64,000 bases of DNA from an uncultured Gammaproteobacteria bacterium. Its GTDB lineage: Bacteria > Patescibacteriota > Patescibacteriia > Magasanikbacterales > UBA922. The position numbers and the translations under genes were made by a program. Shown here one piece after another: positions 13,545-60,265 of this stretch (within the stretch, counting starts at the first letter, position 1; the number at the start of each line of letters is the position of its first letter). The notes under the pieces were generated by a model. It saw only the letters and a program-made list of their open reading frames with translations, did no database searches and was not told where the DNA came from. The DNA is taken from the NCBI GenBank assembly GCA_964612105.1, contig CAZTEU010000001.1, forward strand, positions 147,437 to 211,436, in the 5' to 3' direction.

Positions 13545-13545
13545 T

Positions 13546-14544: not shown

Positions 14545-14547
14545 CAC

Positions 14548-14618
14548 TCGGAGATCGTCTAATGGTAGGACTCCAGGTTCTGGTCCTGGCTATCGGGGTT
14601 CGAATCCCTGTCTCCGAA
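14548..14618 (+). tRNA. tRNA-Gln (anticodon CUG)
   Basis: Cloverleaf with acceptor TCGGAGA/TCTCCGA (U1-A72), D-arm GTCT-AATGGTA-GGAC, anticodon stem CCAGG/CCTGG with loop TTCTGGT, and T-arm CGGGG-TTCGAAT-CCCTG. Discriminator A. CCA is not encoded. Confidence 0.8.
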
Positions 14619-14622
14619 CAAT

Positions 14623-15459: not shown

Positions 15460-15476
15460 ACTATTAAATCACCACA

Positions 15477-15507
15477 AAACAGCTTTATCTAAAGCTGTTT
15501 TTGTTTT
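15477..15507. terminator. bidirectional terminator
   Basis: AAACAGCTTT-atct-AAAGCTGTTT hairpin followed by a T-run. Confidence 0.65.
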
Positions 15508-16454: not shown

Positions 16455-16486
16455 AATGCATGATTATAACAAGTGTAAATAAAAAA

Positions 16487-16508
16487 ACAAGCCCCTTATG
16501 GGACTTGT
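16487..16508 (-). terminator. rho-independent terminator (CCCCUUAUGGG loop family)
   Basis: ACAAGTCCC-ATAA-GGGGCTTGT followed by T7 on the minus strand. Confidence 0.65.
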
Positions 16509-17920
16509 TATCCAAATCTAAATTCCTCTGAATCATTTACTTCTCCTGCATCTGTTCTGTACAGGTTAACTTTCTTTTCTTCGTCTTCTACATCTTCACC
16601 ATCGTCTTGTAGTGGAAGGTCTGGAATTTCCTCAGTAGGAAGACCGATTGGAGGTTCTACTCTCTTTCCTTCCGCTTTTTGTACAAGTGGAGTCTTTACG
16701 TGTGACATTGGGAAGTGCCAAATAGTTGCAAGCTCTTCTATGTTCATAACATATGTAGAAGCTCCTGCGTTAGCTTTTCTTTTCTTGTATGCTCTCATTA
16801 ATAACTCCTTGCGATATTTATCTCTAGATTTCTTAAAAAAATATGACGTGTTTGCCTTAAAAGATGGCACGATTGAGTTTGCAGTTGGGATATTGTACTG
16901 GTTCATTGCACCAACCAGCGCATTAATACCGCGTGCAGGGCGATACACTTCCTTCCTTGCAACATATATTGCACGTATCTTTGTTTTAAAACCAATTTTA
17001 CTTATCTTATCTTCCATTGCTTCCAGTATCTTTGATTGTCCTGGTGTCATGTATTTTAACTGATTCTTCTCCTCACTTTTCTCTTCTTTTTTTACGCTTG
17101 GTTCTCTCAGAAAGACTTCATCACCAACAGCTTCTAATGACTTATAAAAAGCATCCGAAACATAGTCGCCAGCTGTTTTCTTAAACTTCTTCTTCTCACC
17201 GATTAAATCTTTAATCTTCTCAATTGCCTTCTCTTTCCAGCTATTGCTTATAGGTTCCACAATTATTTGCAACCACATCTGTTCACCCTGTCCAATTCTA
17301 CTAAAACTCTCCAAAAGTGTACCCATTGGATCTTTTAGTACAGTGTCCTTAGAGATTGAGTGCTCAAACTCCCTATACGAACGAATTGGATATGAATCAT
17401 CCTCAGCAAGAGAAAAATCTGTTGCCCATATATCATGGGTTTCATTTGGATAATTACCAGGTATATCTGTTGTATAGTCCTCTACTTCCACAATCTCTGC
17501 ATCTGGATACTGTGCATAAATTGCTGTCTCAACAAGCTCACGAAACTTTTCCTCTGTACGCACAAGAAATTGTATATATCCTTCTATACCTATGATTTCA
17601 AAACTAAAGCTACGCTGTTTCTTTCCATGATAGAACTTGTCTGCTATATTCTGATCTCTATACGCACCTGCTAGGTGGGAGAACATTTGTTCAACAGCTT
17701 TAGGTGTTTGTACATTTTCTTGAGGAATGTCTACAGCTAATAATATCCACTTCCAATCTGCTTTGTATTTATCTTGCTTATACTCCTTGTAATAATATAT
17801 TCCGAGGTATAGAAATAACCACGCAAAAAAAGTCCAACCTATTATTGAGAATAGCTGAAAAATTACATCAGAAGCTGGCTGTGTCAGGAAATCAATTAGA
17901 AAATTGAAATTTACCGTCAT
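16508..17920 (-). CDS. VirB4-like N-terminal (membrane) domain protein, split paralog of the N-half of 7565-10138
   Basis: 470 aa. N-terminal TM helix. FEIIGIEGYIQFLVRTEEKFRELVETAIYAQYPDAEIVE aligns with FEIVVHNQQIYFYVDLPVKRRQFFEQQIHAQFPHAQIEE. EELATIWHFPMSHVKTP aligns with EELASMWHLPLHSTEAP. No ATPase motifs. Confidence 0.65.
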   Translation of the reverse strand: MTVNFNFLIDFLTQPASDVIFQLFSIIGWTFFAWLFLYLGIYYYKEYKQDKYKADWKWILLAVDIPQENVQTPKAVEQMFSHLAGAYRDQNIADKFYHGKKQRSFSFEIIGIEGYIQFLVRTEEKFRELVETAIYAQYPDAEIVEVEDYTTDIPGNYPNETHDIWATDFSLAEDDSYPIRSYREFEHSISKDTVLKDPMGTLLESFSRIGQGEQMWLQIIVEPISNSWKEKAIEKIKDLIGEKKKFKKTAGDYVSDAFYKSLEAVGDEVFLREPSVKKEEKSEEKNQLKYMTPGQSKILEAMEDKISKIGFKTKIRAIYVARKEVYRPARGINALVGAMNQYNIPTANSIVPSFKANTSYFFKKSRDKYRKELLMRAYKKRKANAGASTYVMNIEELATIWHFPMSHVKTPLVQKAEGKRVEPPIGLPTEEIPDLPLQDDGEDVEDEEKKVNLYRTDAGEVNDSEEFRFG

Positions 17921-17933
17921 ATTCTATATTCTC

Positions 17934-18095
17934 CTAAACATCAATAAGTTTATACAGCGCAACATAGATAATGATAATAGAAAAAGCAGACCACCACCAT
18001 CCATTAGATGAAGATAAATAACCACCTATGTATGCTAGTAGAACCACCAAAGTTCCTGCAAATGCTATAAAATGACGTATAAAATTGTCTGTCAT
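17934..18095 (-). CDS. small membrane protein (53 aa), hypothetical
   Basis: Minus-strand ORF MTDNFIRHFIAFAGTLVVLLAYIGGYLSSSNGWWWSAFSIIIIYVALYKLIDV between secF and the N-domain gene. Two hydrophobic segments. Below the ORF-track size cutoff. Confidence 0.3.
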   Translation of the reverse strand: MTDNFIRHFIAFAGTLVVLLAYIGGYLSSSNGWWWSAFSIIIIYVALYKLIDV

Positions 18096-18184
18096 ACTTT
18101 TTACAAAATGATTTATAACAATGGAAGTATATCATAAACAAAAAATCCCTCCAACAGGAGAGATTATATAATTATTATAATGTG

Positions 18185-19141
18185 TTATTTGTCTCTGTAC
18201 TTAAATCTCTCCCAAACAACAAGCAGTGGACTTGCTAGGAACAAAGATGAATAGGTACCAAGTGCAATTCCTACAATTAGAGCAAGTGCAAAGTATTTAA
18301 TTGATTCTCCACCAAATAAGAACAGAGAAAATAATACTAATAATGTTGTTGCTGATGTGTTTAATGACCTAACAAGAGTCTGATTAACTCCCATGTTTAC
18401 TGTCTCAGAAAATCTGTCAGACCCGCGCTTAATTAAGTTTTCTCTTACGCGATCAAATACAACAATAGTGTCGTTTACTGAATATCCAAGAATAGTTAGA
18501 AGTGCAACTACAAATGGTATATTCACTTCTATTCCCATGAAATGACCAAGCAGAGCAAATACACCCATTGTTATCGTAATATCGTGAACAAGAGCAATAA
18601 TAGCTGTTACACCATATTTCCAAGACTTAATTGGCTTTGATACTTTTCTAAATGCATATGCAATAAACAATACAATTGCAAAGATAACAACAAGCGCAGC
18701 TTTCCATGCACGAGAGCGTAGATATGAGCTAATTGCTGGTCCAATTGTTTCTATGCGCTCCTCTAATACCAAATTACCTTCCTCACCTTCTACACCCTCT
18801 GTCTCATAGGCACTACGAACATGAGCTAAGATTTCCTGATGCTCATCTTCTGAGATAAATTTTAGTTTCAGTATTACCCCTTTATCTTCGATAGGCTGTG
18901 CAACAATAGAACCATAATCCAATTCTGCAAGCGTATCTCTCATTTCTGACATCTCAGGTCTTTCTTGCGTAAACGATAATTCTATAAGTGAACCACCTGT
19001 AAAGTCTATTCCTGGTTTAAGTCCATATGCCACCAAAATAACAACACTGGACAGGAATATAACTGCAGAAAGAGTAAAACTAATTTTCCTATTTTTAATT
19101 ATTCCTATCATACTTGTTTTTTTGAACCTAGAAATAGCCAA
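18185..19141 (-). CDS. secF: protein translocase subunit SecF
   Basis: 6-TM SecF topology with GIDFTGGSLIEL. Overlaps secD by 34 nt. Confidence 0.85.
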   Translation of the reverse strand: MAISRFKKTSMIGIIKNRKISFTLSAVIFLSSVVILVAYGLKPGIDFTGGSLIELSFTQERPEMSEMRDTLAELDYGSIVAQPIEDKGVILKLKFISEDEHQEILAHVRSAYETEGVEGEEGNLVLEERIETIGPAISSYLRSRAWKAALVVIFAIVLFIAYAFRKVSKPIKSWKYGVTAIIALVHDITITMGVFALLGHFMGIEVNIPFVVALLTILGYSVNDTIVVFDRVRENLIKRGSDRFSETVNMGVNQTLVRSLNTSATTLLVLFSLFLFGGESIKYFALALIVGIALGTYSSLFLASPLLVVWERFKYRDK

Positions 19142-21141
19142 CTACCATGTTCCTTAAACCAAGGCACAATAAATCTCAACATTACTCTTGTTATTGTAAT
19201 TGCTGAGAACATACTTAGTAATATTCCAATGAACAATGTTACAGCAAAACCTTTTACAAAACTAGAACCAAAACCAATCAACATTACACATGTGATTAGT
19301 GTTGATATGTTTCCATCACGAATAGAAGTCCATGCACGTATAAATCCTTCCTCAACTGCAGCCTTAAGACTTTTTCCATCTTTTAGTTCTTCTTTTAATC
19401 TCTCAAATATAAGAACATTAGCATCCACTGCCATACCTATAGAAAGTATAAACCCTGCAATACCGGCAAGTGTTAATGTAACACCTATCAATTTAAATAT
19501 AGCTAGTGTTAGTGCAATATATACAGATAGTGAAATTACAGAAAGTAATCCTGGAAGTCTGTAGTACAGGAACATAAATAGCATTACAAGTAAAACTCCA
19601 GAAACTCCAGCCTTAAGACTCTTTTCTAGTGAAGCTTGTCCTAGTGTTGCCCCTATTGCCTGCTGAGAAATAAGTTCTACAGGAACAGGCAAAGCACCAG
19701 CATTCAGTCTTTGTGAAAGCAATCTTGCTTCTGTGAGATTAAAATTACCTGTAATAACAGCTCTACCATCCGTAATTGCCTGTTGTACTGTTGGTGCACT
19801 TATAATGTTACCATCAAGAAATATTGCAATTGGTTCTCCTACATGCTTTTCTGTCAGATCTGCAAATAACTTTTTTCCTTCACTATCAAACGAAAGTGAA
19901 ACCTGTATAGCCCCTGTTTGTGAATTGGACACAACCTCTGCTCTTTCTAGCTGTTTTCCTGATAATTCTGTGTTTTGCCAAGGTTCTGCTGTTGGTAAAA
20001 TATCAGATGCGGTATTCTTCTTGGTGGATATGCGCCACAGCTCATATTCAACGGGGCTTTCTTTCTTATATATAACATGATATCCAAACTGAGTTTCCAC
20101 TGGTTTGACTATCTCTCCTTCTTGTACGGCAAATACAGCGTCTTCAAATTCTTTTACCATTTGCCCTCTACCAAAGGAACCCAAATCACCACCAGAGACG
20201 TTTGCTCCGGCTTCGTGCGAAAATTCTTTTGCTAGGGCCTCAAAATTACTTGCGTTTGCTTTTTCAAAAATCTCATGTGCTTTGTCCAGAGCTTCTTGTT
20301 TTGTGTATTGAGGATTCTCACAAGAGTTTGCTCCTAAATAACATATTAGTATATGACTAGCACTGACCTGTTCTTCACTTTTTCTACTAATTCCACGCTT
20401 CACAACATGGAAAGCATCGCCTGTGTCTATTAACTTATTTGTAATTGCTCCCTCACCCCTATTCTTTGCCCAGGCAATAATCTCTGGAGCCTGTGTTTCT
20501 GTAACAAAGCCCAGATAACCACCATTATTTTTAGATTGCAAGTCTTCCGAATATTCTCGTGCGATTTCTTCAAAGTCTTCTCCCCCTCTTACTTTATTTA
20601 GCGCTTCTTTAGTACGTGTTTCTACCTCATTATTAAACTCATCTAGTTCTTTCTGCTCATCTTCTGTCAATTCTCTTGGTGGGGTTGTGTTTTCTTCCTT
20701 AAATTCAAGAATAGGAGTCTCCCCTATCATATTTATAGCCTGATTAACATCTGTCACTCCAGGAAGTTCCACAACAATACGGTAATCATCACCCACCTTA
20801 GAAGTCTGCACATTAGGTTCACCAATACCAAGACCGTTTACACGTCTTTCTATCACATCTCTTCCACCTTCTACGGCTGCTGCTCGCTCATTTGCTTCCA
20901 AATTTGACACATCCGCCTGGTACACAAGATGAGCACCACCTTGTAGGTCCAGACCTAAAGCAAATGGTTTTTCTGGAACATTAGGTATTCCAACATGTGT
21001 AACATCGTTTACTTTATTGAAAACACGATTTGCAACAGTTGGCGCATCATATATTGCTGTAATTGCAAGAAGAGCAAATATACCAAAAATCCCCCAACGA
21101 ATCTTGGAGCGAAGCTGTGATTGTGTTTTTTCCGTTCGCAT
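19108..21141 (-). CDS. secD: protein translocase subunit SecD with an inserted parvulin-type PPIase domain
   Basis: 677 aa. P1 head GETPILEF, then approximately aa 150-365 = 1.5 PpiC domains (SASHILI...GGDLGSFGRGQMVKEFEDAVFAVQEGEIVKPVETQFGYHVIYK). After that comes the canonical P1 base (PIAIFLDGNIISAPTVQ...ITGNF...AGALPVP) and 6 TM helices. Confidence 0.8.
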   Translation of the reverse strand: MRTEKTQSQLRSKIRWGIFGIFALLAITAIYDAPTVANRVFNKVNDVTHVGIPNVPEKPFALGLDLQGGAHLVYQADVSNLEANERAAAVEGGRDVIERRVNGLGIGEPNVQTSKVGDDYRIVVELPGVTDVNQAINMIGETPILEFKEENTTPPRELTEDEQKELDEFNNEVETRTKEALNKVRGGEDFEEIAREYSEDLQSKNNGGYLGFVTETQAPEIIAWAKNRGEGAITNKLIDTGDAFHVVKRGISRKSEEQVSASHILICYLGANSCENPQYTKQEALDKAHEIFEKANASNFEALAKEFSHEAGANVSGGDLGSFGRGQMVKEFEDAVFAVQEGEIVKPVETQFGYHVIYKKESPVEYELWRISTKKNTASDILPTAEPWQNTELSGKQLERAEVVSNSQTGAIQVSLSFDSEGKKLFADLTEKHVGEPIAIFLDGNIISAPTVQQAITDGRAVITGNFNLTEARLLSQRLNAGALPVPVELISQQAIGATLGQASLEKSLKAGVSGVLLVMLFMFLYYRLPGLLSVISLSVYIALTLAIFKLIGVTLTLAGIAGFILSIGMAVDANVLIFERLKEELKDGKSLKAAVEEGFIRAWTSIRDGNISTLITCVMLIGFGSSFVKGFAVTLFIGILLSMFSAITITRVMLRFIVPWFKEHGSWLFLGSKKQV

Positions 21142-21192
21142 ATCTATTAGTGCGCGTATTGTACAAAATTTATAAAATCAAGTCAATATAGT

Positions 21193-23970
21193 TTATGCAC
21201 CGTGACATTTCTTATATTTTTTTCCACTACCACAAGTGCACGGATCATTCCTTCCAACCTTATGTCCGGTTTCATCTCGTTCTTTTCTCTTAATGTGAAC
21301 CCCTTGTTCACTCATTGTCTTTTTAGCACCCTCTAAAGTCATCTTATCACCTGCCATAATTGTCGGAGCTAGTTGTATTCCTATCCCCACTTTAAAGAAC
21401 GAGTAAACAATTTCTTTTTGTATATTACTTAGAAGAGAGTTAAATAGATGATAACTTTCTTTCTTATACTCTACAAGTGGATCTCTTTGTCCATATCCTC
21501 TCAAACCAATACCTGTACGTAAATAATCAAGTGAAACCAAATGATCAACCCAAAGAGCGTCTATTGCGCGCAACATTATAGAACTTTCAAATGCTGTAGC
21601 TAATTGTTCTGGAGTCTTATCGTCTTGTGCATGCGTTTTTACATGCTCATTTATCTTGTTATATTCCTCGGTAGCTTTTTCCATTAAGAAAGAAACAATT
21701 GCTTCACGAGCTTTTACATCATCTACTTTTCCTTCTCCGTTTTTACCAAGTGAAAATAGTTTCTCACGATCATTATTATTTAGTGGAAAAATAGTCTTCG
21801 CTGTTTCATAAATTTCCTTCATGTTCCACTCTTTAGATCCTTGCTGAGATTCCCCTTCTATAACCTGTGGATTAGTGTGATAGCTAACTACAAACTCTAT
21901 CTCGCTCTCAATCATGTCCATTATCATCTCTTTTGATGTTCTTTCGTGCTTCTTCTCTTCATCTTCTAAGTCCAATATTGCTCTACGTTTTTCATAAACA
22001 ACTTCACGATGACGATTTAATACATCATCATAATTAAGAAGGTGTTTACGTGTATCAAAGTGCATAGACTCAACCTTCTTCTGAGCATTTTCTAGCATTC
22101 TGGATATCATTTTTTGCTCAATTGGCATATCATCTGGCACTTTTAATCTTTCCATTACAGATTTTAATCTATCTCCTGCAAAAATACGCATTAATTCATC
22201 ATCTGTAGAAACAAAAAATTGGGTGTCTCCAGGATCTCCCTGACGCGCAGCACGACCACGTAACTGATTATCTATACGTCTTGACTCATGTCTCTCTGTA
22301 CCAAGTACAAACAAACCACCCGCTTCCAATACTTTTTTCTCATCTTCTTTATTAACTGGATTTCCACCTAACTTAATGTCCACACCACGTCCAGCCATGT
22401 TTGTAGCAAGAGTAACAGCACCTGGACGACCCGCCTGTGCAACTATCTCTCCCTCACGCTCATGGTTCTTTGCATTAAGTGCCTCATGAGCTATTCCATT
22501 AGCTGTAAGGAACATACTAAGCTCTTCATTCTTTTCCACAGAAATTGTACCAACTAAGACAGGCTGGTTCTTTTCCTGACATTTTCTTATTAGTTCCGCT
22601 GTCGCCTTATACTTTGCCTGCTCTGTCTTATATATACGATCTGGCAAATCTTTTCTTGCGTCCGGCTTGTTTGTTGGAATTACGTGAACATCTAAACCAT
22701 ATATTTTGAAAAACTCCTCTTTTTCTGTTTCTGCTGTACCTGTCATTCCGGACAACTTCTTATACATCCTAAACAAATTCTGGAAGGTAATTGTTGCCAA
22801 AGTTCTACTTTCTCTTTGTATCTGCACACCCTCTTTTGCTTCTATCGCTTGATGCAAACCTTCTGAATACCTACGACCAGGCATTTTACGACCTGTAAAC
22901 TCATCAATAATTACTATTTCATCACCGTCTACAACATATTCCTTATCTCTCTTAAACAAGACCTCGGCTTTTAATGCCTGCTCAATATGATGAACCATTC
23001 TTAATCCACCTTCAACATATATATTTTCCACACCAAGCCATTCCTCAAACTTAGCTATTCCAGCATCTGTAAGAGTAGAACTACGCATCTTTTCATCTAT
23101 ATTATAATCTTCGTTTTCTTTTAGTTGCTTAACCAAACGAGCAAACTGATAATACTGGTCAGCCGCTTCTTCTGCAGGTGCAGAAATAATAAGTGGAGTT
23201 CTTGATTCATCAATTAAAATTGAGTCTACCTCATCGATAATACAGTAATTCATTTCGTCACCCGGGCGCATAACCATATCATCCAGTTTCTGCACCATGT
23301 TGTCACGAAGGTAATCAAAACCATACTCGTTGTTTGTTCCATAAGTTATGTCACAACGATATGCCTCTTTTCTACTGACAGGTCTAAGAAATTCATCCTC
23401 AACCTTAAAACTACCTGTACCATCCCTCTCCTCATCCAACTCTCCACCCTCTTCTCCCCCACTAAAAGATGCATCATAAACAAAGCTCACTCTTTGGTTC
23501 TGTACAACACTAACTGTAAGACCAAGATAATCATATATCTGTGCCATCCATACAGCATCACGTTTTGCCAAATAATCATTTACTGTTACAACATGAACAC
23601 CCTTTTCTTCCAATGCGTTTAAATAAGTAGGTAGAGTGGCAACGAGAGTCTTACCTTCACCTGTTCTCATCTCAGCTATCACACCCTTATGTAGAGAAAT
23701 ACCACCGACAAGTTGCACATCATAATGACGCATGTTTAATACACGACGACCAACTTCTCTTACAACAGCAAAAGCCTCTGGAAGAATATCATCCAAAGTT
23801 TCACCCTTCTTTAATCTTTCCTTAAACTCCCCTGTCTTGGCTTTTAATTTGTTATCAGAAAGAGCCTTCATGGAAGGTTCTAAACTATTTATCTTATCAA
23901 CGGTTGGCTGATAAGATTTCATCTTCTTTTTGTTTTGATCACCAAGTAATTTCTCTAGAAATTTAGCCAT
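21193..23970 (-). CDS. secA: preprotein translocase ATPase SecA
   Basis: 925 aa. DEAD motor motifs and C-terminal zinc finger CTCGSGKKYKKCHG. Confidence 0.9.
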   Translation of the reverse strand: MAKFLEKLLGDQNKKKMKSYQPTVDKINSLEPSMKALSDNKLKAKTGEFKERLKKGETLDDILPEAFAVVREVGRRVLNMRHYDVQLVGGISLHKGVIAEMRTGEGKTLVATLPTYLNALEEKGVHVVTVNDYLAKRDAVWMAQIYDYLGLTVSVVQNQRVSFVYDASFSGGEEGGELDEERDGTGSFKVEDEFLRPVSRKEAYRCDITYGTNNEYGFDYLRDNMVQKLDDMVMRPGDEMNYCIIDEVDSILIDESRTPLIISAPAEEAADQYYQFARLVKQLKENEDYNIDEKMRSSTLTDAGIAKFEEWLGVENIYVEGGLRMVHHIEQALKAEVLFKRDKEYVVDGDEIVIIDEFTGRKMPGRRYSEGLHQAIEAKEGVQIQRESRTLATITFQNLFRMYKKLSGMTGTAETEKEEFFKIYGLDVHVIPTNKPDARKDLPDRIYKTEQAKYKATAELIRKCQEKNQPVLVGTISVEKNEELSMFLTANGIAHEALNAKNHEREGEIVAQAGRPGAVTLATNMAGRGVDIKLGGNPVNKEDEKKVLEAGGLFVLGTERHESRRIDNQLRGRAARQGDPGDTQFFVSTDDELMRIFAGDRLKSVMERLKVPDDMPIEQKMISRMLENAQKKVESMHFDTRKHLLNYDDVLNRHREVVYEKRRAILDLEDEEKKHERTSKEMIMDMIESEIEFVVSYHTNPQVIEGESQQGSKEWNMKEIYETAKTIFPLNNNDREKLFSLGKNGEGKVDDVKAREAIVSFLMEKATEEYNKINEHVKTHAQDDKTPEQLATAFESSIMLRAIDALWVDHLVSLDYLRTGIGLRGYGQRDPLVEYKKESYHLFNSLLSNIQKEIVYSFFKVGIGIQLAPTIMAGDKMTLEGAKKTMSEQGVHIKRKERDETGHKVGRNDPCTCGSGKKYKKCHGA

Positions 23971-24148: not shown

Positions 24149-24964
24149 TTATCCCTTCTTGAGACGCAGAATTCGGTCCGTGCTGTGGAAGTTGTTGTCG
24201 AGATTGTCCCAGCGCTGTCTCCAGTGATCCGCGTGCCAGTAGACACAGCTGACGAGCTTGTTGTGGTCAGGGTTACGCCAGTCTGTGAAGACAAACACTA
24301 CCCTGTCTCGGAGCACGATGGGGATCTCGTCTTGGTGCTCCAACAAGTGCCGACCATGCTTTTCGCCGAGATGGGCATACCCAATCGTGGCACGCGCGAC
24401 CATGGCTTCGCCTCTGACACTCTCCTCACTATCTTCCAGGAAGTTGATAATCTCGTAGGTGCGGTCACCAACGGTCATCTCGGTCGGGAGAGCATCCTCT
24501 TCCTGCTTGAGACGCAGGATTCGGCTGATATTGCGGAACTGGTAGCCAATCCATTGCCATTGTCTCATCCAGTGTTTGCCATTCCAGTGTATGGTGCAAA
24601 TGTCCCCAGGATTGGCGTAATCGCGACGCCAGTTCGTGAAGACGAAGGTATTACCCCGTAGCTCGACTGGAATCTGGTGTTGGTGTTTCAGCAGATGTTC
24701 GCCTGCTTCCTTATTGGGGTTTGCGTCAATCTCGCTCACACGCCTCACCACTGTCTGACCATCTACCGACCCCTCTCCTTCCTCGTGGAACCCGAGAATC
24801 TCGTAGGTGCGGTCACCAACGGTCATCTCCTGAGGAAGGGAATCCCGGAAGAGCTTGTCGCAGAACCTCTTGACCTTCCCGGTGTTTTCCGGGTTGATCA
24901 GGTCTTCGAATCTCTTTTCACCCAACTGCTCCCGCAGATGAGCCAATTTACGCAAGGTGCCCAT
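24149..24964 (-). CDS. hypothetical protein with two tandem ~115-aa repeats (GC-rich island)
   Basis: PQEMTVGDRTYEILGFHEEGEGSV...FVFTNWRRDYANP...RILRLKQ is repeated as PTEMTVGDRTYEIINFLEDSEESV...FVFTDWRNPDHN...RILRLKK. ATG at 24964 sits behind SD GGGTGAGGAGAG. The track's GTG at 24970 is rejected. Confidence 0.5.
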   Translation of the reverse strand: MGTLRKLAHLREQLGEKRFEDLINPENTGKVKRFCDKLFRDSLPQEMTVGDRTYEILGFHEEGEGSVDGQTVVRRVSEIDANPNKEAGEHLLKHQHQIPVELRGNTFVFTNWRRDYANPGDICTIHWNGKHWMRQWQWIGYQFRNISRILRLKQEEDALPTEMTVGDRTYEIINFLEDSEESVRGEAMVARATIGYAHLGEKHGRHLLEHQDEIPIVLRDRVVFVFTDWRNPDHNKLVSCVYWHADHWRQRWDNLDNNFHSTDRILRLKKG

Positions 24965-25198
24965 TTGCACCTCTCCTCACCCTTTTGTACAAAGGGTTCA
25001 CTCCTCACCAACATGACGAAGAGGAAGACGAGTTGGTGTTCAGGTCTTCTCTTTGCATACCTAAGTAAATATACACAGAGAAGACCTAAACCATAGTATT
25101 TTAAAGAGCTATTTGACTGGTCAGATTAACATTAAATCACTATTTTGTCAATATAACCTAATTATATAACATATTTACCTAATTCTAGCTATAAAGTA

Positions 25199-25227: not shown

Positions 25228-25260
25228 ATGCTCACACCCCAAGGGGAAGGAGAGAAAATC

Positions 25261-25767
25261 ATGAGTAAATCACTCAACATCGTCATCACTTCCGACCATG
25301 CAGGTCTGGATATGCGGGCGGCAATCTGCGCTTACCTGCGCAAAGAAGGTCATGCAGTCATCGACCAGGGTCCACAGCCGGGAGAGGTTGTAGACTACCC
25401 GGAGTACGCGGAGGCTGCAGTACAAGCAATGCTCTGTGACATTCCTAGCGATGTGGACGACAGCATCAAGATCGATCTGGTCATCCTCATCTGCGGTACA
25501 GGCATCGGTATGAGCATCGTCGCGAACAAGTTCAGCGGTGTCAGTGCAGCTCTGGTACACGACCATCTCACCGCGAAATTCGCGAAAGAGCACAACAACG
25601 CGAACGTGCTCTGCCTGGGCTCACGTGTGACAGCTGATGTTGTCGCAGTCGACTGCGTTGCCACGTTCCTCGAGGCAAAGTTCGAAGAGCGCCACCAACG
25701 ACGCATTGACATGATCATGGACATCGAGGTGAACGGTTCATGTATCGGATCTTTGATGTCTGACTGA
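25261..25767 (+). CDS. rpiB: ribose-5-phosphate isomerase B
   Basis: MSKSLNIVITSDHAG...CGTGIGMSIVANK matches RpiB/LacAB. Start moved to ATG 25261, 8 nt after SD AAGGGGAAGGAGAG. GC-rich. Confidence 0.8.
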   Translation: MSKSLNIVITSDHAGLDMRAAICAYLRKEGHAVIDQGPQPGEVVDYPEYAEAAVQAMLCDIPSDVDDSIKIDLVILICGTGIGMSIVANKFSGVSAALVHDHLTAKFAKEHNNANVLCLGSRVTADVVAVDCVATFLEAKFEERHQRRIDMIMDIEVNGSCIGSLMSD

Positions 25768-27224: not shown

Positions 27225-27357
27225 AATATCCTTTACTTTTTCTCTATTTATGCTAACCTAATTACATGAACGTATTTAATGTATTCACAACAAAGAAGAC
27301 CAAGAAGGTCCTCCCTCGGAAGAGGTAGTTGTGTTGCATTAGAAAAAATTGCTAACC

Positions 27358-27384
27358 AGCCACCTCAACCGAGGTGGTTTTTCT
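27358..27384 (+). terminator. intrinsic terminator/attenuator hairpin
   Basis: CCACCTC-aacc-GAGGTGG followed by TTTTT. No gene ends here on the + strand. Confidence 0.5.
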
Positions 27385-27399
27385 ATTGGGGGTGGGAAA

Positions 27400-27612
27400 G
27401 ATGAGTGGGAATCAGGAACATGGCGCAGTCTCAAACGACAAGGACGGGAACGATCTCTTTCCAGGAGATGTTGTCTGGCCAGGATGGGCACTGTTCGCAG
27501 GAAGACGAGGGGTTGTGCAAGAATCCACATACAGCTCTGCTATCGTTCATCTCGTGGAGGAGGGTGGTACAGCAAGTGGAACAATCCGCAGTTCCTCAGT
27601 ATCCAAACGCTG
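27400..27612 (+). other. GC-rich unit: either a 70-aa ORF with an SD, or a structured RNA
   Basis: GGGGGTGGGaaagATG, then MSGNQEHGAVSNDKDGNDLFPGDVVWPGWALFAGRRGVVQ... Three + frames are simultaneously open. Flanked by hairpin terminators at 27358-27384 and 27633-27674. Confidence 0.3.
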
Positions 27613-27632
27613 AGCAAGGAGGACACACAGCG

Positions 27633-27674
27633 GGGATCTAGGCATTAGCCTGATCCCCGTGTCTCTTTTTTTGG
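27633..27674 (+). terminator. rho-independent terminator
   Basis: GGGGATC-(12 nt)-GATCCCC, then gtgtctc, then T7. Confidence 0.55.
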
Positions 27675-51153: not shown

Positions 51154-51349
51154 AAATATAATGAGTGTCCCGCTTTGACACTCATAGTAGTCCGAATGGG
51201 TCGTAAGAACCACATGAGGTTGGGGACCTCAGACACGCGCAAGAGGCGGGAGGTAAGGTGGGTGCCTCAAACGAGTGCGGAGTGCCAAAGCGGAACCATC
51301 CACATGCCAGGGTGGGGAGTGGGCTGTTCTGAACCCAGGCATATAAGAT
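51154..51349 (-). promoter_or_regulatory. GC-rich structured 5' leader of mnmA (~195 nt) with promoter 51356-51384
   Basis: Minus-strand TTGACA (51384-51379), a 17-nt spacer, then TATAGT (51361-51356). The leader is ~60% GC. A 9-bp hairpin ATGAGTGTC/GACACTCAT (51161-51185) ends 7 nt before the AUG. Confidence 0.45.
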
Positions 51350-51980: not shown

Positions 51981-52571
51981 ATGAGTTCACGAATAGAGTC
52001 GCCAAGCAAGAAAGACCTCAGAGAGGTATCGAATGCTTTCAAGATCACAGAGAACTGGCCAAAACCTGGTGTTACCTTCCGCTGTGTCAGCGGTGTGCTG
52101 GAGTCACCAAAACTTCGACGAATGATGAACATGGCGCTGTCAAAAAGGATCCAGGAAATGACGCCAGATGTCGTTGTGCTCCTCGATTCACGAGGCTTCC
52201 TGCTCACTCCAGCGGTAGACCTCCTCTGTCTGCCAGTTGTCATGGCGCGCAAGGCTGGCAAGCTACCACCACCATGCGTCGCTTACACTTACGACTTGGA
52301 ATACGGAACAGCGACCATCGAGCTACAGAGGCAGGCTTTCCACAAAACCAGCAGGGATATGGCTTCCCGTGGTATGAGTGGACCACCAAGAGTGGTGATC
52401 GCTGATGACGTCCTCGCAACTGGGGGCACTGTACTGGCAACCAAAACCCTTGTGGAACAGTTGGAATGCACAGTGGCAGGATACGTGTTCATCGCAGAGC
52501 TCAATGGACTTGGAGGGTCAAATAGGCTCGCCACAAAGTCCACACCTGTCGAGTCACTCTTTCGTTTCTAG
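51981..52571 (+). CDS. apt: adenine phosphoribosyltransferase (GC-rich island)
   Basis: PRTase PRPP-binding loop VVIADDVLATGGTV and APRT-like N-terminus ITENWPKPGVTFRCVSGVLESPKL. SD GGAGGG sits 6 nt upstream. Confidence 0.7.
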   Translation: MSSRIESPSKKDLREVSNAFKITENWPKPGVTFRCVSGVLESPKLRRMMNMALSKRIQEMTPDVVVLLDSRGFLLTPAVDLLCLPVVMARKAGKLPPPCVAYTYDLEYGTATIELQRQAFHKTSRDMASRGMSGPPRVVIADDVLATGGTVLATKTLVEQLECTVAGYVFIAELNGLGGSNRLATKSTPVESLFRF

Positions 52572-52583
52572 GGAGGAAGCAAA

Positions 52584-53177
52584 ATGTCCAAGGAAAGAGA
52601 AATCGACCAAATCGATACCCTCCTGACCGCAGAGGAAATCGCAGAGCGTGTTGAGAAGATCGGTAAGCAGATCTCTCTCGACTACAGAGGTAAGTTGGAC
52701 GGCCAACCACTCATCCTCATCTGTGTACTCAAAGGTTCGTTTATCTTCACAGCCGACCTGATGCGTGCCATCGATGAGGACATTCCGGTAATCGTTCAGT
52801 TCATCGCTGTGAGTTCCTACGAGGGGAAAACCACCAAATCAAGTGGTGCTGTTCGTCTCGCATACGACCTCCGTGAAAACATCGAAGGACGAGACTGCAT
52901 CATTGTAGAGGACATCGTTGACACCGGATTGACGGTGAAGTACCTTCTAGATCTGTTTGGGGCACGCAAACCGCGTTCACTGCGAGTCTGTACACTCCTC
53001 CACAAGCCGTCGCGTGAAAAGGTCAAAGTGCCACTGCAATATGTCGGCTACACAATCGAGAACAAGTTCGTTGTTGGTTGCGGTCTGGACTACGACCAGC
53101 TACTACGTGGACGAGGAGACATTGGAGAGCTGGTCTTCAAAGACGAAGGGGAAGAGGGCAGTCCTGAGGGAGGCTAG
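52584..53177 (+). CDS. hpt: hypoxanthine-guanine phosphoribosyltransferase (GC-rich island)
   Basis: LKGSFIFTADL...IVEDIVDTGLTVKYL...LLHKPSR...GCGLDY. SD GGGAGGAAG. Confidence 0.8.
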   Translation: MSKEREIDQIDTLLTAEEIAERVEKIGKQISLDYRGKLDGQPLILICVLKGSFIFTADLMRAIDEDIPVIVQFIAVSSYEGKTTKSSGAVRLAYDLRENIEGRDCIIVEDIVDTGLTVKYLLDLFGARKPRSLRVCTLLHKPSREKVKVPLQYVGYTIENKFVVGCGLDYDQLLRGRGDIGELVFKDEGEEGSPEGG

Positions 53178-54694: not shown

Positions 54695-54727
54695 AATCCC
54701 GATTACTCGGGATTACTAATCTATGCA
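54695..54727 (-). terminator. rho-independent terminator of the Cys-rich protein gene
   Basis: Minus strand: AATCCCGA-gtaa-TCGGGATT followed by T8. Confidence 0.7.
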
Positions 54728-54855
54728 CCATTATTGATGAACAAATTAGTGGGGCGGTGAATCTTTCGATCCACCGCCAGGGGTTCCCTCCTTGGGCTCC
54801 TCCTTCAGATTGTCCGGGACTAAACAACCTACCACCGTTCGTGCTGGCAACACTC

Positions 54856-56697
54856 TCAGATGCAGACCTGGGTAGGCCTTCCAATGGTCTTGTAGAAAAA
54901 CCACTCGATCCCGAATGCACAACCCTTGCCGTTCTTGTAGTCACAGCTCTGATCCTTGGGGTCGCTGTTGTCGCACTCAACACAGAACTTCTGGTTTTTC
55001 TTCTCGGCTGCCCAGTAGACAGTAGCACACTGCTCACCGAACTTTGACCCCTTGCAGTCCTTGTCGGCTCCACAGCAACCAAAGTCCTCATGGTGACATT
55101 TGCCGTTGAGATCACAGTAGTCCGCGGTGCAGACCTTGCCATCAGAGCAGTCCTTGTTGACCTTGCACAGCTTACATCCAGCGATTGGTTTGTATTGACA
55201 CCCATTCGTCTTGTTGCAGGAGTCTGTTGTGCACAGATCCCCGTCATCGCATGACAATTCCTTGCCTGTACAGATACTTCCCTTGCACTTGTCGTTGAGG
55301 GTGCAGACGTTCATGTCTGTGCAAATTGCACCATCGTCCATCGGGATGAAGGTGCACTTGCCGGTCTTCTGGTCACAGGAGTCCTTGGTGCAAGGGTTCT
55401 TGTCCACACACTCCACTCCCATGCCAAGACACTTGCCGTCCTTGCATCCATCGCTGGTCGTGCAAGAATCGTTGTCGTTGCAGTCGATACCATTCTGGGA
55501 TGGTGTGAAGGCACAATCTCCAGTCTTGGAGTCGCAGAAATCCTTGGTGCATGGATTGTTGTCTTCACACACCTTTGTGGTTTTCGTGATGCAGACCCCA
55601 CTGATGCACTTTTCCACAGTGCAGACGTCGCTTTCCTTGCACTTCTTCATCTCTGTGATCTTGCAACCCTTGCTTGTGCAGACCATCTTCTCGATGCACG
55701 ACTGAGCGTCGACTTTGCACTGATCGTGGTCTGGGCTGTGAGCACACTTCCCTGTTCCAAGAACGCACGAGTCGATGGTGCATGCGATTCCATCCTTGCA
55801 GTCGACAGACTCGTTCTTGCACTTGCTGTTGGCTGTGCAGGTGTCGGTGGTGCAGAGGTTCTTGTCATCACAATCACCTGACTTGGTGCACTCGCAAACG
55901 TTGATGCCTTTGGTGCACGTGTTCTTGATGCACTGATGATTGACTGTGCAAGAATCCTCGTCATCGCACTCGACGTCTGTAGAGCAACAGTCCTCGATCT
56001 CCTCGTGTATGCACTCTTTCAAGGTTTCCAAATCGCAGGAGTCTGCAGTACAAGGTTTGCCGTCGTCGCAGGACTTTTGGTTCACAGTGAACACACACTT
56101 CCCGCTCTCGAAGACGCATAGATCGTCTGTGCAATCAACCCCGTCGTCGCAAATGACATTGTCCGTGTTCACACAAAGACTGTCCTGACATACGTCGACG
56201 GTGCAGAGATTCTCATCCAAATCACACACATTGCCAATCGACTTGTACACGCAACCCTTGCCTGGATCGCATGAATCGTCCGTGCAGACATTGTCGTCGT
56301 TGCAAACCTTCCACGAATCCATGTCTCCGACACACTTCCCGCTTTCGAGATCGCACTTGGAAATCTCGGTGCAGGAGTTGTTATCATCACAGGTCGCGGT
56401 GTTTGGCATATGCACACAGCCGACATCTTCTTCGCAGACATCTTTGGTGCAAATCTTGCCGTCGTCGCATTTGTCGGGGACGTAGTCGCACTTGTTGTTG
56501 CTGTTGCATTTGCCAATCCAGCAACTCTTGATGCAATCATCCTTCGTCTCACAGAAACCAGGAGGAAGTTGTGTATCCTCAGAGCCCTGATCTGCAAAGG
56601 TAGCAGCGTCAGCCGGCCCTTTGACCGAATCTTCGCTACATGAAATTGAGAGGAAAATCACCACGAACATCGTGATGATGAGGTCCCGGTTCATCAT
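54856..56697 (-). CDS. giant cysteine-rich repeat lipoprotein/secreted protein (GC-rich island)
   Basis: Start at MMNRDLIITMFVVIFLSISC, 7 nt after SD AAGGAG. Dozens of repeats of the form C-x-D-x-N/D-x-C-T-x-D-x-C-D-x-x-T/S-G-x-C, about 18% Cys. Resembles Myxococcus-type cysteine-rich repeats (inference). Confidence 0.65.
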   Translation of the reverse strand: MMNRDLIITMFVVIFLSISCSEDSVKGPADAATFADQGSEDTQLPPGFCETKDDCIKSCWIGKCNSNNKCDYVPDKCDDGKICTKDVCEEDVGCVHMPNTATCDDNNSCTEISKCDLESGKCVGDMDSWKVCNDDNVCTDDSCDPGKGCVYKSIGNVCDLDENLCTVDVCQDSLCVNTDNVICDDGVDCTDDLCVFESGKCVFTVNQKSCDDGKPCTADSCDLETLKECIHEEIEDCCSTDVECDDEDSCTVNHQCIKNTCTKGINVCECTKSGDCDDKNLCTTDTCTANSKCKNESVDCKDGIACTIDSCVLGTGKCAHSPDHDQCKVDAQSCIEKMVCTSKGCKITEMKKCKESDVCTVEKCISGVCITKTTKVCEDNNPCTKDFCDSKTGDCAFTPSQNGIDCNDNDSCTTSDGCKDGKCLGMGVECVDKNPCTKDSCDQKTGKCTFIPMDDGAICTDMNVCTLNDKCKGSICTGKELSCDDGDLCTTDSCNKTNGCQYKPIAGCKLCKVNKDCSDGKVCTADYCDLNGKCHHEDFGCCGADKDCKGSKFGEQCATVYWAAEKKNQKFCVECDNSDPKDQSCDYKNGKGCAFGIEWFFYKTIGRPTQVCI

Positions 56698-56856
56698 CTC
56701 AGCTCCTTCTTGACTGCACTTGGCAGTACTGTTGCGCACACGAATACAAATGGTCAGCTTGAGCTAACACACACAATATCCATAAGATACTCTGTGAGCT
56801 AGCCCAAAGCATAGTATAAAAAGAACGCTGTTGTTCCTATTATAGGAAAACAGCTA

Positions 56857-56885
56857 AAATTAGCAAAATTTTGTTATCTTGTCAA
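56857..56885 (-). promoter_or_regulatory. sigma70-like promoter for the Cys-rich protein gene
   Basis: Minus-strand TTGACA, a 17-nt spacer, then TAATTT. About 150-nt AT-rich 5' UTR. Confidence 0.45.
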
Positions 56886-57696: not shown

Positions 57697-59496
57697 TTAG
57701 CCATCAAAACTAATTACTTCGTCTGGGTTTATTGATTTTGGTTTTGGTTCTACTTTATCTACAATAGGTTCTTGTTTTTTTGATGTATTTTGAGTGTTCT
57801 GTTGGTTATGTTGAGGAGCGCCACCATTTTGCTTGTTCTTTTTTTTACGTTTTCTTTTTCTTTTACGTTTTTTATTTTCATTGGATGGCTTATTATCACT
57901 ATCTATATTATCTTTCTTAACTTCTACTTTAACGTCCTCTTTTTTTGGGAGTAAATCATTTAATGAGAGGGAGTCTGGTTTTTCCTCTTTCTTTATCTCT
58001 TCTTTTTTCTCAACAACCTCCTCTTTCTTTTCTGGCTTAGGTGTGTCTTTTTTCTTTTCAAACTCTTTTGGAAACTCTTTTGCTGGTACAGGTTTATTTT
58101 TTGGTGTTTCATTCTTACCCTCTTTGTTCTTTGTGGTGTCTATATTATCTGATTCTTCACCATCACCCTCTTCTCCCAATCCACTCCAGCGTAATATCTT
58201 ATCCTCAATCATTTCTCGAGGTTTTGAATATCTTTCGCGGGACACCTTTACTACTCTTTCGCTACTTCCAGTAGGAGAACCAATTGGAGGTAGCGTGGAG
58301 GATGTAAACGGCTGGGAAGATACTCCATCTATCATTAGTTTTAATATAATCTCAAATTTTGCAAGATTAACAATATCTTCTTCTATAAATGTTGGACTAA
58401 ACTCTTTGACCAAAGCTTCTGCATCTGCACCACCAACACGGAAAGAAATAATTGTACCAACATTACCAAAAACCGCATCTGCAACAATTTCATCTAACTG
58501 CGCAATATATTGGTGAGCCATAACAAGACTCAATCGATACTTTCTAGCCTCAGAAAGAATGTTTGCAAAAGATGGAGTTGCAAAGTTCTGAAACTCATCA
58601 ACAAAGAGAACAAAATCTCTGCGATCCTTCTCCGGTGTATCTACACGCTCCATTGCTGCAAGTTGAATCTTTGTAATTAACATTCCACCCAAAAGTCTAC
58701 TATTATCCTCTCCAATCCTACCTTTTGAGAGGTTCATAATGATTATCTTGCCTGTATCCATTGCGTCGCGAATTTCTACAGTAGATTTTACCTGAGCAAC
58801 CATATTACGAATAACATTTGCAGAAAGAAATTGACCAATCTTATTCTGAATAGGTGCAACAGCTTCTTGTTGATATCTGTCATTATAATTAGCAAACTCA
58901 TTTTGCCAGAAGGATTTAATAACCGGATCTTTGAGTCCACGCACAATTTTCTTTCTATATTTCTTATCTCCAAGCATCCTGTTAATTCCAAGAAGTGTTG
59001 TGCCTGGATTATCTAAAAGAGCAAGTAAGGTGTTATTTAATATGTATTCCATCCTAGAACTCCACACATCTGGCCATATCTTCTTGAATATACCCATCAG
59101 TCCAGCTACAACCAAATGCTTCTGGTCCTCGTTTTCTACTTCTAATATGTTAAAACCAATAGGATTTCCAACATCTGATGGATTTATGTATATAACATCA
59201 TTAATTCTATACGATGGAATGTAGTCAATAATTTTCTCTGCAAAATCTCCATGTGGATCCACTACACCAACTCCATGTCCGGCATATATATCATGGAGAA
59301 CCATATTTTCTAACAAAGTGGTTTTTCCCATACCTGTCTTCCCCACCACATACATATGTCTGCGCCTATCGTCTAGTTTAATACCAAAACGACGCATTTG
59401 ATTGCGAAAGTTTGTTTGGGCAAAAAGACAAATCTGCTCATCCTCTTTGGACTCATCTTTTCCTGTACTTAGGTGGTGAGTTGGCATATATGGCAT
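57697..59496 (-). CDS. VirB4-like type IV secretion ATPase, split ATPase-domain paralog with a K/E-rich basic tail
   Basis: Walker A YVVGKTGMGKTT, Walker B VLFVDEFQNF, then SEARKYRLSLVMAHQY. Collinear with the C-half of 7565-10138. C-terminal ~170 aa are a low-complexity K/E/P tail ending NKKRKRKRKRKKKNKQ. Confidence 0.7.
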   Translation of the reverse strand: MPYMPTHHLSTGKDESKEDEQICLFAQTNFRNQMRRFGIKLDDRRRHMYVVGKTGMGKTTLLENMVLHDIYAGHGVGVVDPHGDFAEKIIDYIPSYRINDVIYINPSDVGNPIGFNILEVENEDQKHLVVAGLMGIFKKIWPDVWSSRMEYILNNTLLALLDNPGTTLLGINRMLGDKKYRKKIVRGLKDPVIKSFWQNEFANYNDRYQQEAVAPIQNKIGQFLSANVIRNMVAQVKSTVEIRDAMDTGKIIIMNLSKGRIGEDNSRLLGGMLITKIQLAAMERVDTPEKDRRDFVLFVDEFQNFATPSFANILSEARKYRLSLVMAHQYIAQLDEIVADAVFGNVGTIISFRVGGADAEALVKEFSPTFIEEDIVNLAKFEIILKLMIDGVSSQPFTSSTLPPIGSPTGSSERVVKVSRERYSKPREMIEDKILRWSGLGEEGDGEESDNIDTTKNKEGKNETPKNKPVPAKEFPKEFEKKKDTPKPEKKEEVVEKKEEIKKEEKPDSLSLNDLLPKKEDVKVEVKKDNIDSDNKPSNENKKRKRKRKRKKKNKQNGGAPQHNQQNTQNTSKKQEPIVDKVEPKPKSINPDEVISFDG

Positions 59497-59554: not shown

Positions 59555-60265
59555 TTATAGGAATTGTTTAATTACTGCCTCTACATTTGCATAAGGTTGT
59601 GCACCACTTACTGGTATCATTTCCCCATCAGGACTAATAACTACAGAATATGGTGTACCTTGCGCACCTGCTCCAGCACCATCTTGCTCATCTGCCTGCA
59701 CATCTGATGCATACTTTTGCTCCGAAACACATTTGTTAAACTTGTCTAAATCTTTTACCCCAGCTCTCTTTGCCAACTCTGCAGTGTCTGCTAAACCACT
59801 TTCAAAGTTAACATCCATATATTCCCAGAATTTACCTTGCTCACCCGCACATTCAGATGCAATAGCCTTTGTTCTTGCATTTGGATGTAGCCCATCAAGT
59901 GGAAAGTGTCTGTATATCCAACGAACATCATCACCATAGTTTTTTACTATCTCGTTCATTGTGTCATGGAATTTCTGACAGAACGGACAATCCATATCGG
60001 AAAACTCAACTATCGTCACTTTTGCTTTCTCATTTCCTCTAATATGATCTTTTTTCTTGTCCACTTCTGCTACCGTAACATCTACTGGAGCAGAAGGCTC
60101 ATTAGGATTTACTGTTGGCGATGGGACATTTGGTACCACAGCAACATCTTTTTTGTCATCGTCGCTTAGAACGATGCCAAGTAGTATAAAAAAACCTATT
60201 GTACAAAGGACGAGAACTCCCCCAACCGCTCCTAGTCCAAAAGCTTGTTTTTGTGAAACAGCCAT
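59555..60265 (-). CDS. DsbA-family thiol:disulfide oxidoreductase (membrane-anchored)
   Basis: N-terminal TM and thioredoxin motif CPFC (DMDCPFCQKFHD). Confidence 0.75.
   Translation of the reverse strand: MAVSQKQAFGLGAVGGVLVLCTIGFFILLGIVLSDDDKKDVAVVPNVPSPTVNPNEPSAPVDVTVAEVDKKKDHIRGNEKAKVTIVEFSDMDCPFCQKFHDTMNEIVKNYGDDVRWIYRHFPLDGLHPNARTKAIASECAGEQGKFWEYMDVNFESGLADTAELAKRAGVKDLDKFNKCVSEQKYASDVQADEQDGAGAGAQGTPYSVVISPDGEMIPVSGAQPYANVEAVIKQFL

Follow-up and report, generated by a model that had tools for sequence, protein, structure and literature searches.

A GC-rich cysteine-repeat lipoprotein gene, long resident in a Magasanikbacteria-like genome, and its possible role as a surface arm

A 64,000-nucleotide stretch of contig CAZTEU010000001.1 (assembly GCA_964612105.1), here called the window, carries on its minus strand at 54856-56697 a gene for a 613-residue lipoprotein made largely of cysteine-rich repeats. 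We find that its product is an ordinary member of a very large, catalogued and functionally uncharacterised repeat family, Pfam Dicty_CTDC (PF00526, hereafter CTDC), and that the gene is an old acquisition, whose gain predates the split from the lineage of a related 1.23-Mb genome (GCA_965231005.1, locus L003) bearing a syntenic ortholog. The product would be an exported, lipid-anchored, disulfide-stiffened surface arm or adhesin of a Magasanikbacteria-like cell, with GC-rich codons maintained since an old gain, a reading that we hold to be moderately probable. The protein itself adds little, since Pfam already lists the repeat family and public data contain over 12,000 diverged representatives of it; the persistent GC-rich state of the gene is the sole surprising element.

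An intact gene for a PF00526 repeat protein

The open reading frame (ORF) runs uninterrupted from an ATG at 56697 (ORF list and sequence), preceded by the Shine-Dalgarno sequence AAGGAG. An earlier note on this DNA, made from the letters without database searches, had picked out this ORF, and it is real. An alternative in-frame GTG upstream at 56739 would add 14 residues, lacks a ribosome-binding site and is the less likely start. Logan assemblies of three separate runs agree with the window at 99.99-100% along stretches of 3.5-19 kb that take in the gene and both AT-rich/GC-rich junctions, and independent assemblies encode an identical protein. Tandem Repeats Finder detected no DNA-level tandem repeat in the gene, and the repeat cores are merely 61-74% identical in DNA; the repeats are old at the DNA level. 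An interrupted ORF or a collapse of repeats in assembly, which the earlier note had seen as a danger to its reading, is ruled out together with a chimera by the absence of a tandem DNA repeat and the agreement of the three assemblies across the junctions. Phase variation in repeat number is likewise ruled out because full-length members of the 90% cluster are all 612 or 613 residues long, with a single D-to-Y variant; the comparison of repeat number among strains proposed in that note thus yields no variation. The gene is real, intact and well conserved. The JGI gene calls P0362 and P0363 for 54856-56697 are shortened to 264 and 276 residues, a gene-calling artefact that likely arises when gene finders trained on an AT-rich genome mis-handle a GC-rich ORF. 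A related symptom is the set of off-frame overlapping ORFs listed for the window, which are by-products, as had been suspected, since the gene whose other frames they occupy has thousands of homologs.

The gene and its associated elements are the following (pLDDT, the AlphaFold2 per-residue confidence):

56814-56885, minus strand: conserved promoter or regulatory block, 53 of 71 positions identical upstream of the L003 ortholog
56839-56866, minus strand: core sigma-70-type promoter, TTGCTA-16 nt-TATAAT (consensus scan, 10/12); 25 of 28 positions, spacer included, identical in L003
56703-56708, minus strand: Shine-Dalgarno sequence AAGGAG, 5 nt before the ATG, read from the sequence
54856-56697, minus strand: coding sequence of the 613-residue Dicty_CTDC repeat lipoprotein (ORF list, sequence, Pfam, homologs); stop codon 54856-54858
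56641-56697, minus strand: predicted signal peptide, residues 1-19, with n-region MMNRD and then hydrophobic LIITMFVVIFLSIS (pattern match; AlphaFold2 helix at residues 3-14)
56638-56640, minus strand: codon of Cys20, the predicted lipid-attachment residue, in lipobox L-S-I-S-C (pattern match)
56554-56637, minus strand: Cys-free acidic linker, residues 21-48 (sequence; pLDDT below 50 for residues 15-47)
55990-56553, minus strand: five-Cys cap (residues 49-76) and repeat block 1, six canonical four-Cys modules (77-236) (Cys spacing; AlphaFold2)
55873-55989, minus strand: irregular central eight-Cys module CC...CxC, residues 237-275 (low model confidence)
55078-55872, minus strand: repeat block 2, nine canonical four-Cys modules (276-507) and a six-Cys module (508-540) (Cys spacing; AlphaFold2)
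54859-55077, minus strand: C-terminal non-repeat region with nine Cys, residues 541-613, the end farthest from the anchor (sequence; pLDDT below 50)
54715-54855, minus strand: GC-rich 3' untranslated stretch (about 0.50 GC), not conserved in L003
54695-54714, minus strand: intrinsic terminator hairpin AATCCCGA-GTAA-TCGGGATT followed by a T-run (terminator scan)

The N-terminus, MMNRDLIITMFVVIFLSISC, fits a lipoprotein signal pattern (PROSITE-PS51257-style), which asks for a basic n-region, an h-region free of charge and a lipobox whose Cys falls within residues 15-35, in agreement with the signal and LSISC lipobox read in the earlier note. With Ser at the -3 position, where Leu is canonical, the lipobox is acceptable rather than ideal. 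By eye, most family members with a true N-terminus show a hydrophobic stretch, a small residue and a Cys; a regular-expression flag for such N-termini was too loose, firing on fragments too, and its count is not relied on. The protein contains 84 Asp (13.7%) and 89 Cys (14.5%), short of the "over 100 Cys" claimed before. Exclusion of Cys20 leaves 88 Cys, an even number with room for 44 disulfides. These are arranged in 15 canonical modules and four irregular Cys-rich segments. The motif C-x-D-x3-C-T-x-D-x-C does run along most of the protein as noted earlier, but the repeat unit is a four-Cys module of about 24-27 residues and not of about 15. Two subtypes alternate to give a super-repeat of about 50 residues, with Cys spacings in the 15 modules of 6,5,6-7,8-11 or 6,6,5,7; in the family at large the consensus CDDxNPCTxDxCDxxxGC alternates with CDDGxxCTxxDxCxxGxC.

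A Pfam scan assigns the protein to PF00526 with 96.9 bits (gathering threshold 27 bits; E = 5.3e-28) and nine stretches passing alone, the strongest at residues 482-505; it has the 24-residue four-Cys repeat with a C-x5-C-T-x-D-x-C core that defines membership. This was the sole Pfam match at E<=1, with no EGF or TSP3 model and no carbohydrate-binding module, and no NCBIfam model matched at E<=1. The Myxococcus-type repeat TIGR02232 matched neither the protein nor its ortholog even at E<=10, while the positive control P0009 was found at 1.1e-9. The earlier view of an exported disulfide-rich protein of a known repeat family is therefore right in outline, whereas the TIGR02232, EGF and TSP3 models named for it are ruled out by these scans. 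The library used did include TSP3_bac, and the TSP3-type motif occurs elsewhere in the window, in a Peptidase_C39-like protein at 13546-14544 on the plus strand (bacterial TSP3 repeat PF18884, 5.4e-6).

A word-indexed search recovered 2799 homologs at E<=1e-5, and an exhaustive search 12,416 representatives (50% identity, E<=1e-3), 1,923 of them at E<=1e-30 and many 2000-5500 residues long. Roughly 100 of the 120 best homologs are repeat-only; the others in that set add a head domain, namely an FGE-sulfatase/C-lectin fold, fibrinogen C, dockerin, disintegrin, cupredoxin or subtilase. Some family members contain PF03781. The possibility that the gene is a target of a diversity-generating retroelement was ruled out, as PF03781 is lacking in the 613-residue protein and no template/variable repeat pair was seen in the window.

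The AlphaFold2 model, built from a 50-sequence alignment, has a mean pLDDT of 72 and a predicted template-modelling score (pTM) of 0.36, a low value as expected for a rod. The pLDDT is mostly 86-97 at residues 81-200 and 371-500; over residues 71-230, largely block 1, it is 75-96, mostly 88-96, with paired β-strands in each module. The signal peptide and linker, the irregular module in the middle and the tail at the C-terminus all score below 50. The 34 short strands give about 17 hairpins, and the repeats are confidently modelled as a chain of β-hairpins. A sequence search of the PDB returned nothing meaningful, and a 2021 survey lists PF00526 among repeat families without known structure (PMC8078820). 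The sole solved structural analogue is the cysteine-rich arm of the Entamoeba Gal/GalNAc lectin heavy chain, in which a cysteine-rich region of about 20-residue pseudo-domains forms an elongated arm "rigidified by interdomain disulphide bonds" (PMC12948311).

Age and origin of the gene

The gene is 51% GC in a window of 36% GC, and its GC content at third codon positions (GC3) is 0.67 with sharp boundaries, against 0.23-0.33 in 37 native genes, so that the GC-rich character given to it in the earlier note is well founded. There it had been taken as horizontally acquired. This raises two questions, one of foreign origin and one of time of arrival, to which the evidence gives different answers.

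The window's order of SOD, AhpC, PGI, DsbA, a VirD4-like gene, a dehydratase and the CTDC lipoprotein recurs in GCA_965231005.1. The ortholog there (P0017, 659 residues) is collinear end to end (residues 9-568 against 6-579, E = 2e-86), and the flanking orthologs are 54-80% identical in protein. Among the 120 best homologs the CC...CxC module is common to these two proteins only. The resemblance extends to the promoter, which the earlier note had called native and which is indeed AT-rich and conserved in L003. The conserved block begins at a TTGACA overlapping the stop codon of the Carb_kinase gene, and the leader outside it is 41% identical to that of L003, against 53 of 71 positions inside it. 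The 28-nt core promoter motif occurs once in the window, and no regulatory motif common to its GC-rich genes was found; a scan of the metagenome contigs with the promoter pattern gave no match.

The ortholog is equally GC-rich (GC3 0.68, its neighbors 0.20-0.25), and the codon fractions of the pair at two-fold sites, in per cent, are nearly the same (TGC 69/70, GAC 60/67, AAG 81/81, AAC 77/78, GAG 70/71). At conserved two-fold-degenerate sites codon identity between the two genomes equals the expectation for independent draws in every gene (54% observed against 57% expected in the lipoprotein gene), and the correlation of GC-ending states (phi) is -0.06 +/- 0.08 for the lipoprotein gene and +0.08 +/- 0.04 for the pooled flanks. 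Synonymous sites are thus saturated between the two. As a correlation below about 0.1 implies that each lineage retains less than about a third of the ancestral synonymous states, a GC3 in passive decay toward a genomic equilibrium of about 0.25 could not still stand at 0.67. The GC-rich codon usage is thus either maintained by a force specific to the gene or renewed by repeated overwriting of the gene from a GC-rich source. Codon bias linked to expression is an unlikely cause because the ribosomal-protein and RpoA genes of the window have a GC3 of about 0.24-0.25.

In a rival version, built on the earlier note's horizontal acquisition, the gene is a recent foreign arrival, whose composition has not yet drifted to that of its host. 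Several observations are in its favor: the GC3 of 0.67 against 0.23-0.33 with sharp boundaries, the lack of the gene from the equivalent slot in relatives, the match of the family to local composition in Myxococcota, and the presence in the window of seven other genes foreign-looking in codon usage, including a hypoxanthine phosphoribosyltransferase (HPRT) gene with Myxococcota as best named relatives. Yet the ortholog is collinear, lies in the same slot with a conserved promoter, and is saturated at synonymous sites with a GC3 of 0.68, so that GC-richness is no mark of recent arrival. Passive decay predicts correlated synonymous states or a loss of GC, neither of which is seen, and the best non-self homolog is only 38% identical. 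Despite its atypical composition the locus also lacks the flanking repeats expected of a recently transferred genomic island: neither direct or inverted repeats nor mobile-element genes were found around the gene, and tblastn against phage and plasmid collections gave no match, a search in which the low-complexity filter may hide repeat matches. An insertion by a mobile element is accordingly without support. The word "recent" is already contradicted by these data, and we regard this version as improbable. Composition alone would misdate the acquisition, since GC-richness in an AT-rich genome here persists across saturated divergence.

Foreign origin is better founded. In two other Magasanikbacteria assemblies the next gene follows directly after the dehydratase, and the CTDC gene is absent from the slot. 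A Cys-rich ORF was seen in 0 of 80 metagenome loci holding a dehydratase homolog, and in the 24 of these with at least 2.5 kb of downstream sequence the CTDC gene is likewise absent from the slot. This absence in the two assemblies and the 24 metagenome relatives indicates that the gene was gained. When the two orthologs were searched against GTDB species representatives, 510 confirmed stretches were obtained; the best 78 loci, the ortholog apart, are nearly all from Myxococcales or from metagenome-assembled genomes (MAGs) of Myxococcota, often with several loci per genome. The 50-sequence alignment used as a locus query found nothing, being too diverged. In the Myxococcota genomes the GC content of the CTDC genes equals that of their flanks, 53-75%. 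The Myxococcota connection drawn in the earlier note therefore stands at the level of the family, which is centered on this phylum, and judging from these relationships the gene was probably gained from a Myxococcota-type source. A 2026 preprint on "cysteine-rich repeats" as markers of horizontal gene transfer was set aside, as it concerns a different repeat with different Cys spacing.

The seven other genes with the same shifted codon usage form sharply bounded islands (GC3 0.52-0.75 against about 0.27):

4060-4506, minus strand: GC-rich island (codon usage)
4534-4965, minus strand: GC-rich island (codon usage)
5932-6792, minus strand: GC-rich island (codon usage)
24149-24970, minus strand: GC-rich island (codon usage)
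25228-25767, plus strand: GC-rich island (codon usage)
51981-52571, plus strand: GC-rich island (codon usage)
52584-53177, plus strand: GC-rich island (codon usage)

They encode two paralogous carbonic-anhydrase-like proteins (PF20393, below the Pfam cut-off), RpiB, an APRT-like protein, HPRT (best named relatives Polyangiaceae and Myxococcales, 53-55%), a 286-residue lipoprotein without a family and a 273-residue protein with an internal duplication (two-repeat). GC3 outliers make up about 16% of the ORFs in the window as against about 1% (3 of about 260) in 24 related loci. Ribosomal or other non-coding RNA as the cause of the islands was ruled out, since Rfam recognizes a single tRNA in the window and the islands are protein-coding with GC3 periodicity. 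It is conceivable that within the 36%-GC genome of this Magasanikbacteria-like lineage the codon usage of a subset of genes is stably balanced on the GC-rich side (GC3 about 0.5-0.75, native genes about 0.25). The subset would comprise the surface lipoprotein, its CTDC neighbors in L003 and perhaps, in the window, the genes for RpiB, APRT, HPRT and the carbonic-anhydrase-like proteins; we offer this as a tentative and rather doubtful proposal. If true, the GC-rich state would have outlasted synonymous saturation and would call for a gene-specific force of about 2Ne*s = 1.8 per site, for which the candidates would be mRNA or codon selection that does not follow ordinary expression level, gene conversion with a bias, or the uptake of DNA from a GC-rich (Myxococcota-like) partner that keeps overwriting the genes.

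Further GC-rich CTDC genes are found in two related loci. In L003 two more CTDC-repeat lipoprotein genes follow the ortholog, at 12191-19840 (2549 residues, 12.3% Cys, GC3 0.50) and 20170-21980 (at least 1291 residues, GC3 0.67); the matching position of the window holds a GCS2-family gene, for which a search in the genome contigs returned nothing. An Azambacteria contig (L010) has four CTDC genes together, with GC3 of 0.70-0.85 against 0.46-0.53 in most of their neighbors.

A proposed surface arm and its rivals

The organization of the protein suggests how such an arm might be built. After export by the Sec system (SecA, SecD and SecF are encoded in the window), the signal peptide would probably be cleaved and Cys20 lipid-modified, tethering the protein to the outer face of the membrane. 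Past the acidic linker, about 17 Dicty_CTDC modules, each a β-hairpin with four Cys, would with up to 44 disulfides form a stiff, protease-resistant and extended arm, with a small non-repeat Cys-rich tip at its far end. Such an arm would most likely serve as a rigid surface projection for contact or attachment, either as an adhesin or as a spacer. In favor of this proposal are an architecture in which anchor and distinct tip occupy opposite ends, the Entamoeba analogue, the role proposed for Cys-rich proteins of other candidate phyla radiation (CPR) bacteria, and the head domains that follow the repeats in some relatives and fit a display stalk. The gene itself would have come to an ancestor of the lineage from a family at home in GC-rich Myxococcota and would now be long resident, with a conserved promoter of its own.

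Oxidation of the cysteines would take place outside the cytoplasm, and here the earlier note had pointed to a DsbA-type oxidase, which is real:

59555-60265, minus strand: membrane-anchored DsbA-type thiol oxidase with a CPFC motif (Pfam Thioredoxin_4 9.6e-23, DSBA 6.4e-16; N-terminal membrane helix)

Its relative position is kept in L003. A signal peptide, an even set of 88 Cys and a DsbA-type oxidase in the genome are what would be expected of a DsbA-dependent secreted protein, and this enzyme, encoded 3 kb away, is the obvious candidate catalyst of folding, outside the operon of the lipoprotein gene. What links it to the lipoprotein is proximity; with two genes intervening and no DsbA near the CTDC genes of two other loci, we see in the pair a plausible dependency and not an operon.

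Several observations weigh against the arm as we picture it. The genes between DsbA and the lipoprotein (VirD4-like and dehydratase) are unrelated to either, and no DsbA lies within 8 kb of the CTDC genes in an Azambacteria and an Uhrbacteria locus. Neither Lgt and LspA nor DsbB and VKOR are found among the proteins of the 64-kb window. No ligand-binding domain is recognizable in the 613-residue protein; model confidence is low at its C-terminal tip, and past about residue 568 conservation with the ortholog ends. The protein is also invariant across samples, unlike many fast-evolving adhesins, and a contact or adhesion role is argued from architecture and analogy. By the same analogy the cysteine-rich arm may be a spacer alone, as the Entamoeba arm itself bound no sugar (PMC12948311).

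The main rival explanation makes the protein a structural component of the envelope or matrix, that is, a cross-linked, polysaccharide-associated coat protein. In Dictyostelium, proteins with the PF00526 repeat belong to the spore coat and to the matrix of the slime sheath or stalk tube, and some of them bind cellulose. Sharing of this repeat with matrix and coat proteins, the preponderance of repeat-only homologs without a head domain, and the invariance of the protein across samples would all suit such a role, as would the CTDC genes lying side by side in relatives (three in L003, four in the Azambacteria locus), which fit bulk structural use, and the glycosyltransferase and polysaccharide-export genes of the window. 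Yet a single N-terminal lipid anchor on a long rod is better suited to a projecting molecule than to a lattice, no carbohydrate-binding module was detected by Pfam, and a polysaccharide partner is without support. We consider a coat protein rather unlikely.

Far less probable still is that the protein buffers thiols, metals or redox state outside the cell, like a metallothionein, through free Cys. The abundance of Cys and Asp and the SOD and AhpC genes in the neighborhood might point that way, but the cysteines are spaced as in a folded repeat, whose hairpins are confidently modelled, the Cys count is even once the lipobox Cys is excluded, the protein is predicted to be exported with DsbA encoded nearby, and the cysteines of the Entamoeba analogue are in disulfides.

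Comparison with known systems bears on the proposed surface arm in several ways. Like the window protein, the Dictyostelium PF00526 proteins have a 24-residue four-Cys repeat and are secreted, almost wholly repeats and extracellular; the window protein differs in being bacterial, with a lipoprotein signal and in a small-genome patescibacterial cell. The CTDC lipoproteins of Myxococcota MAGs are the closest matches outside the ortholog (32-39%), are mostly repeat-only and, by eye, begin with a signal peptide plus Cys where the N-terminus is present. In contrast to the window protein they are usually longer (up to more than 5000 residues), have many paralogs per genome and a GC content equal to their flanks, and lack the central CC...CxC module. 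The Myxococcus repeat TIGR02232/PF13948 is similarly acidic, Cys-rich, extracellular and found in Myxococcota, and co-occurs with CTDC repeats in the member P0009, but is a distinct repeat. Large Cys-rich extracellular proteins with a signal peptide, averaging 1655 residues and about 7% Cys and weakly resembling the Myxococcus cysteine-rich repeat, have been described in the CPR lineage Peribacteria, where they were proposed to confer rigidity or to serve in attachment; the genomes concerned were noted to have one disulfide-formation protein (PMC4736985, Anantharaman et al. 2016). By description they share with the window protein a place among CPR surface proteins, a signal peptide and a very high Cys content, whereas the latter is shorter (613 residues) and richer in Cys (14.5%).

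As a compact, invariant, single-copy example of a usually giant family, the 613-residue protein is practical for expression, disulfide mapping and structure determination. It is also a candidate for the contact molecule of an uncultured Patescibacteria lineage with small genomes. Its family and the neighboring salvage enzyme both point to Myxococcota, a testable hint about a partner organism.

Neighboring genes and minor observations

The window encodes housekeeping proteins such as SecA, SecD and SecF, MurB, MurJ, RpoA, ribosomal proteins, AlaRS and MnmA. The NAD(P)HX dehydratase next to the lipoprotein gene has Candidatus Magasanikbacteria as its best named relatives (53-58% identity), and by gene relationships the host cell is Magasanikbacteria-like (Patescibacteria). 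Contig OZ246405.1 (L012) is titled "uncultured Gammaproteobacteria", yet has a Patescibacteria-type gene content and synteny with the window; the titles of several CTDC-rich and GC-rich MAG contigs, "Enterobacteriaceae" or "Klebsiella pneumoniae", also look wrong.

Two VirD4/TraG-type coupling-protein-like ATPases are encoded in the window, at 7565-10138 (plus strand) and 57697-59496 (minus strand); the latter has a long Lys/Glu-rich tail, and its position beside DsbA and the dehydratase is kept in relatives. Inserted in the SecD protein (19108-21141, minus strand) is a peptidyl-prolyl isomerase domain of PPIC type (two Rotamase stretches, 6e-38), and the same SecD-PPIC fusion lies at the edge of an Uhrbacteria locus (L011). 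Small genes matching the 23S_rRNA_IVP family recur in related Magasanikbacteria loci (L003 2209-2571; L008 4964-5335 and 13833-14204), and two of these weakly match bAvd, the accessory-protein fold of diversity-generating retroelements; no gene of the 23S_rRNA_IVP/bAvd type was seen in the window.

GC-rich patches (0.49-0.54 GC) also occur outside long ORFs, at 27290-27670 (plus strand) and 51190-51345. Neither matched Rfam at E<=1. Folding of the patch at 51190-51345 gave no advantage over shuffled sequence. The patch at 27290-27670 has a possible 73-codon ORF from 27421 and closes with a hairpin and T-run resembling a terminator (about 27632-27672); two CTDC genes occupy the corresponding place, upstream of MurB, in the Uhrbacteria locus.

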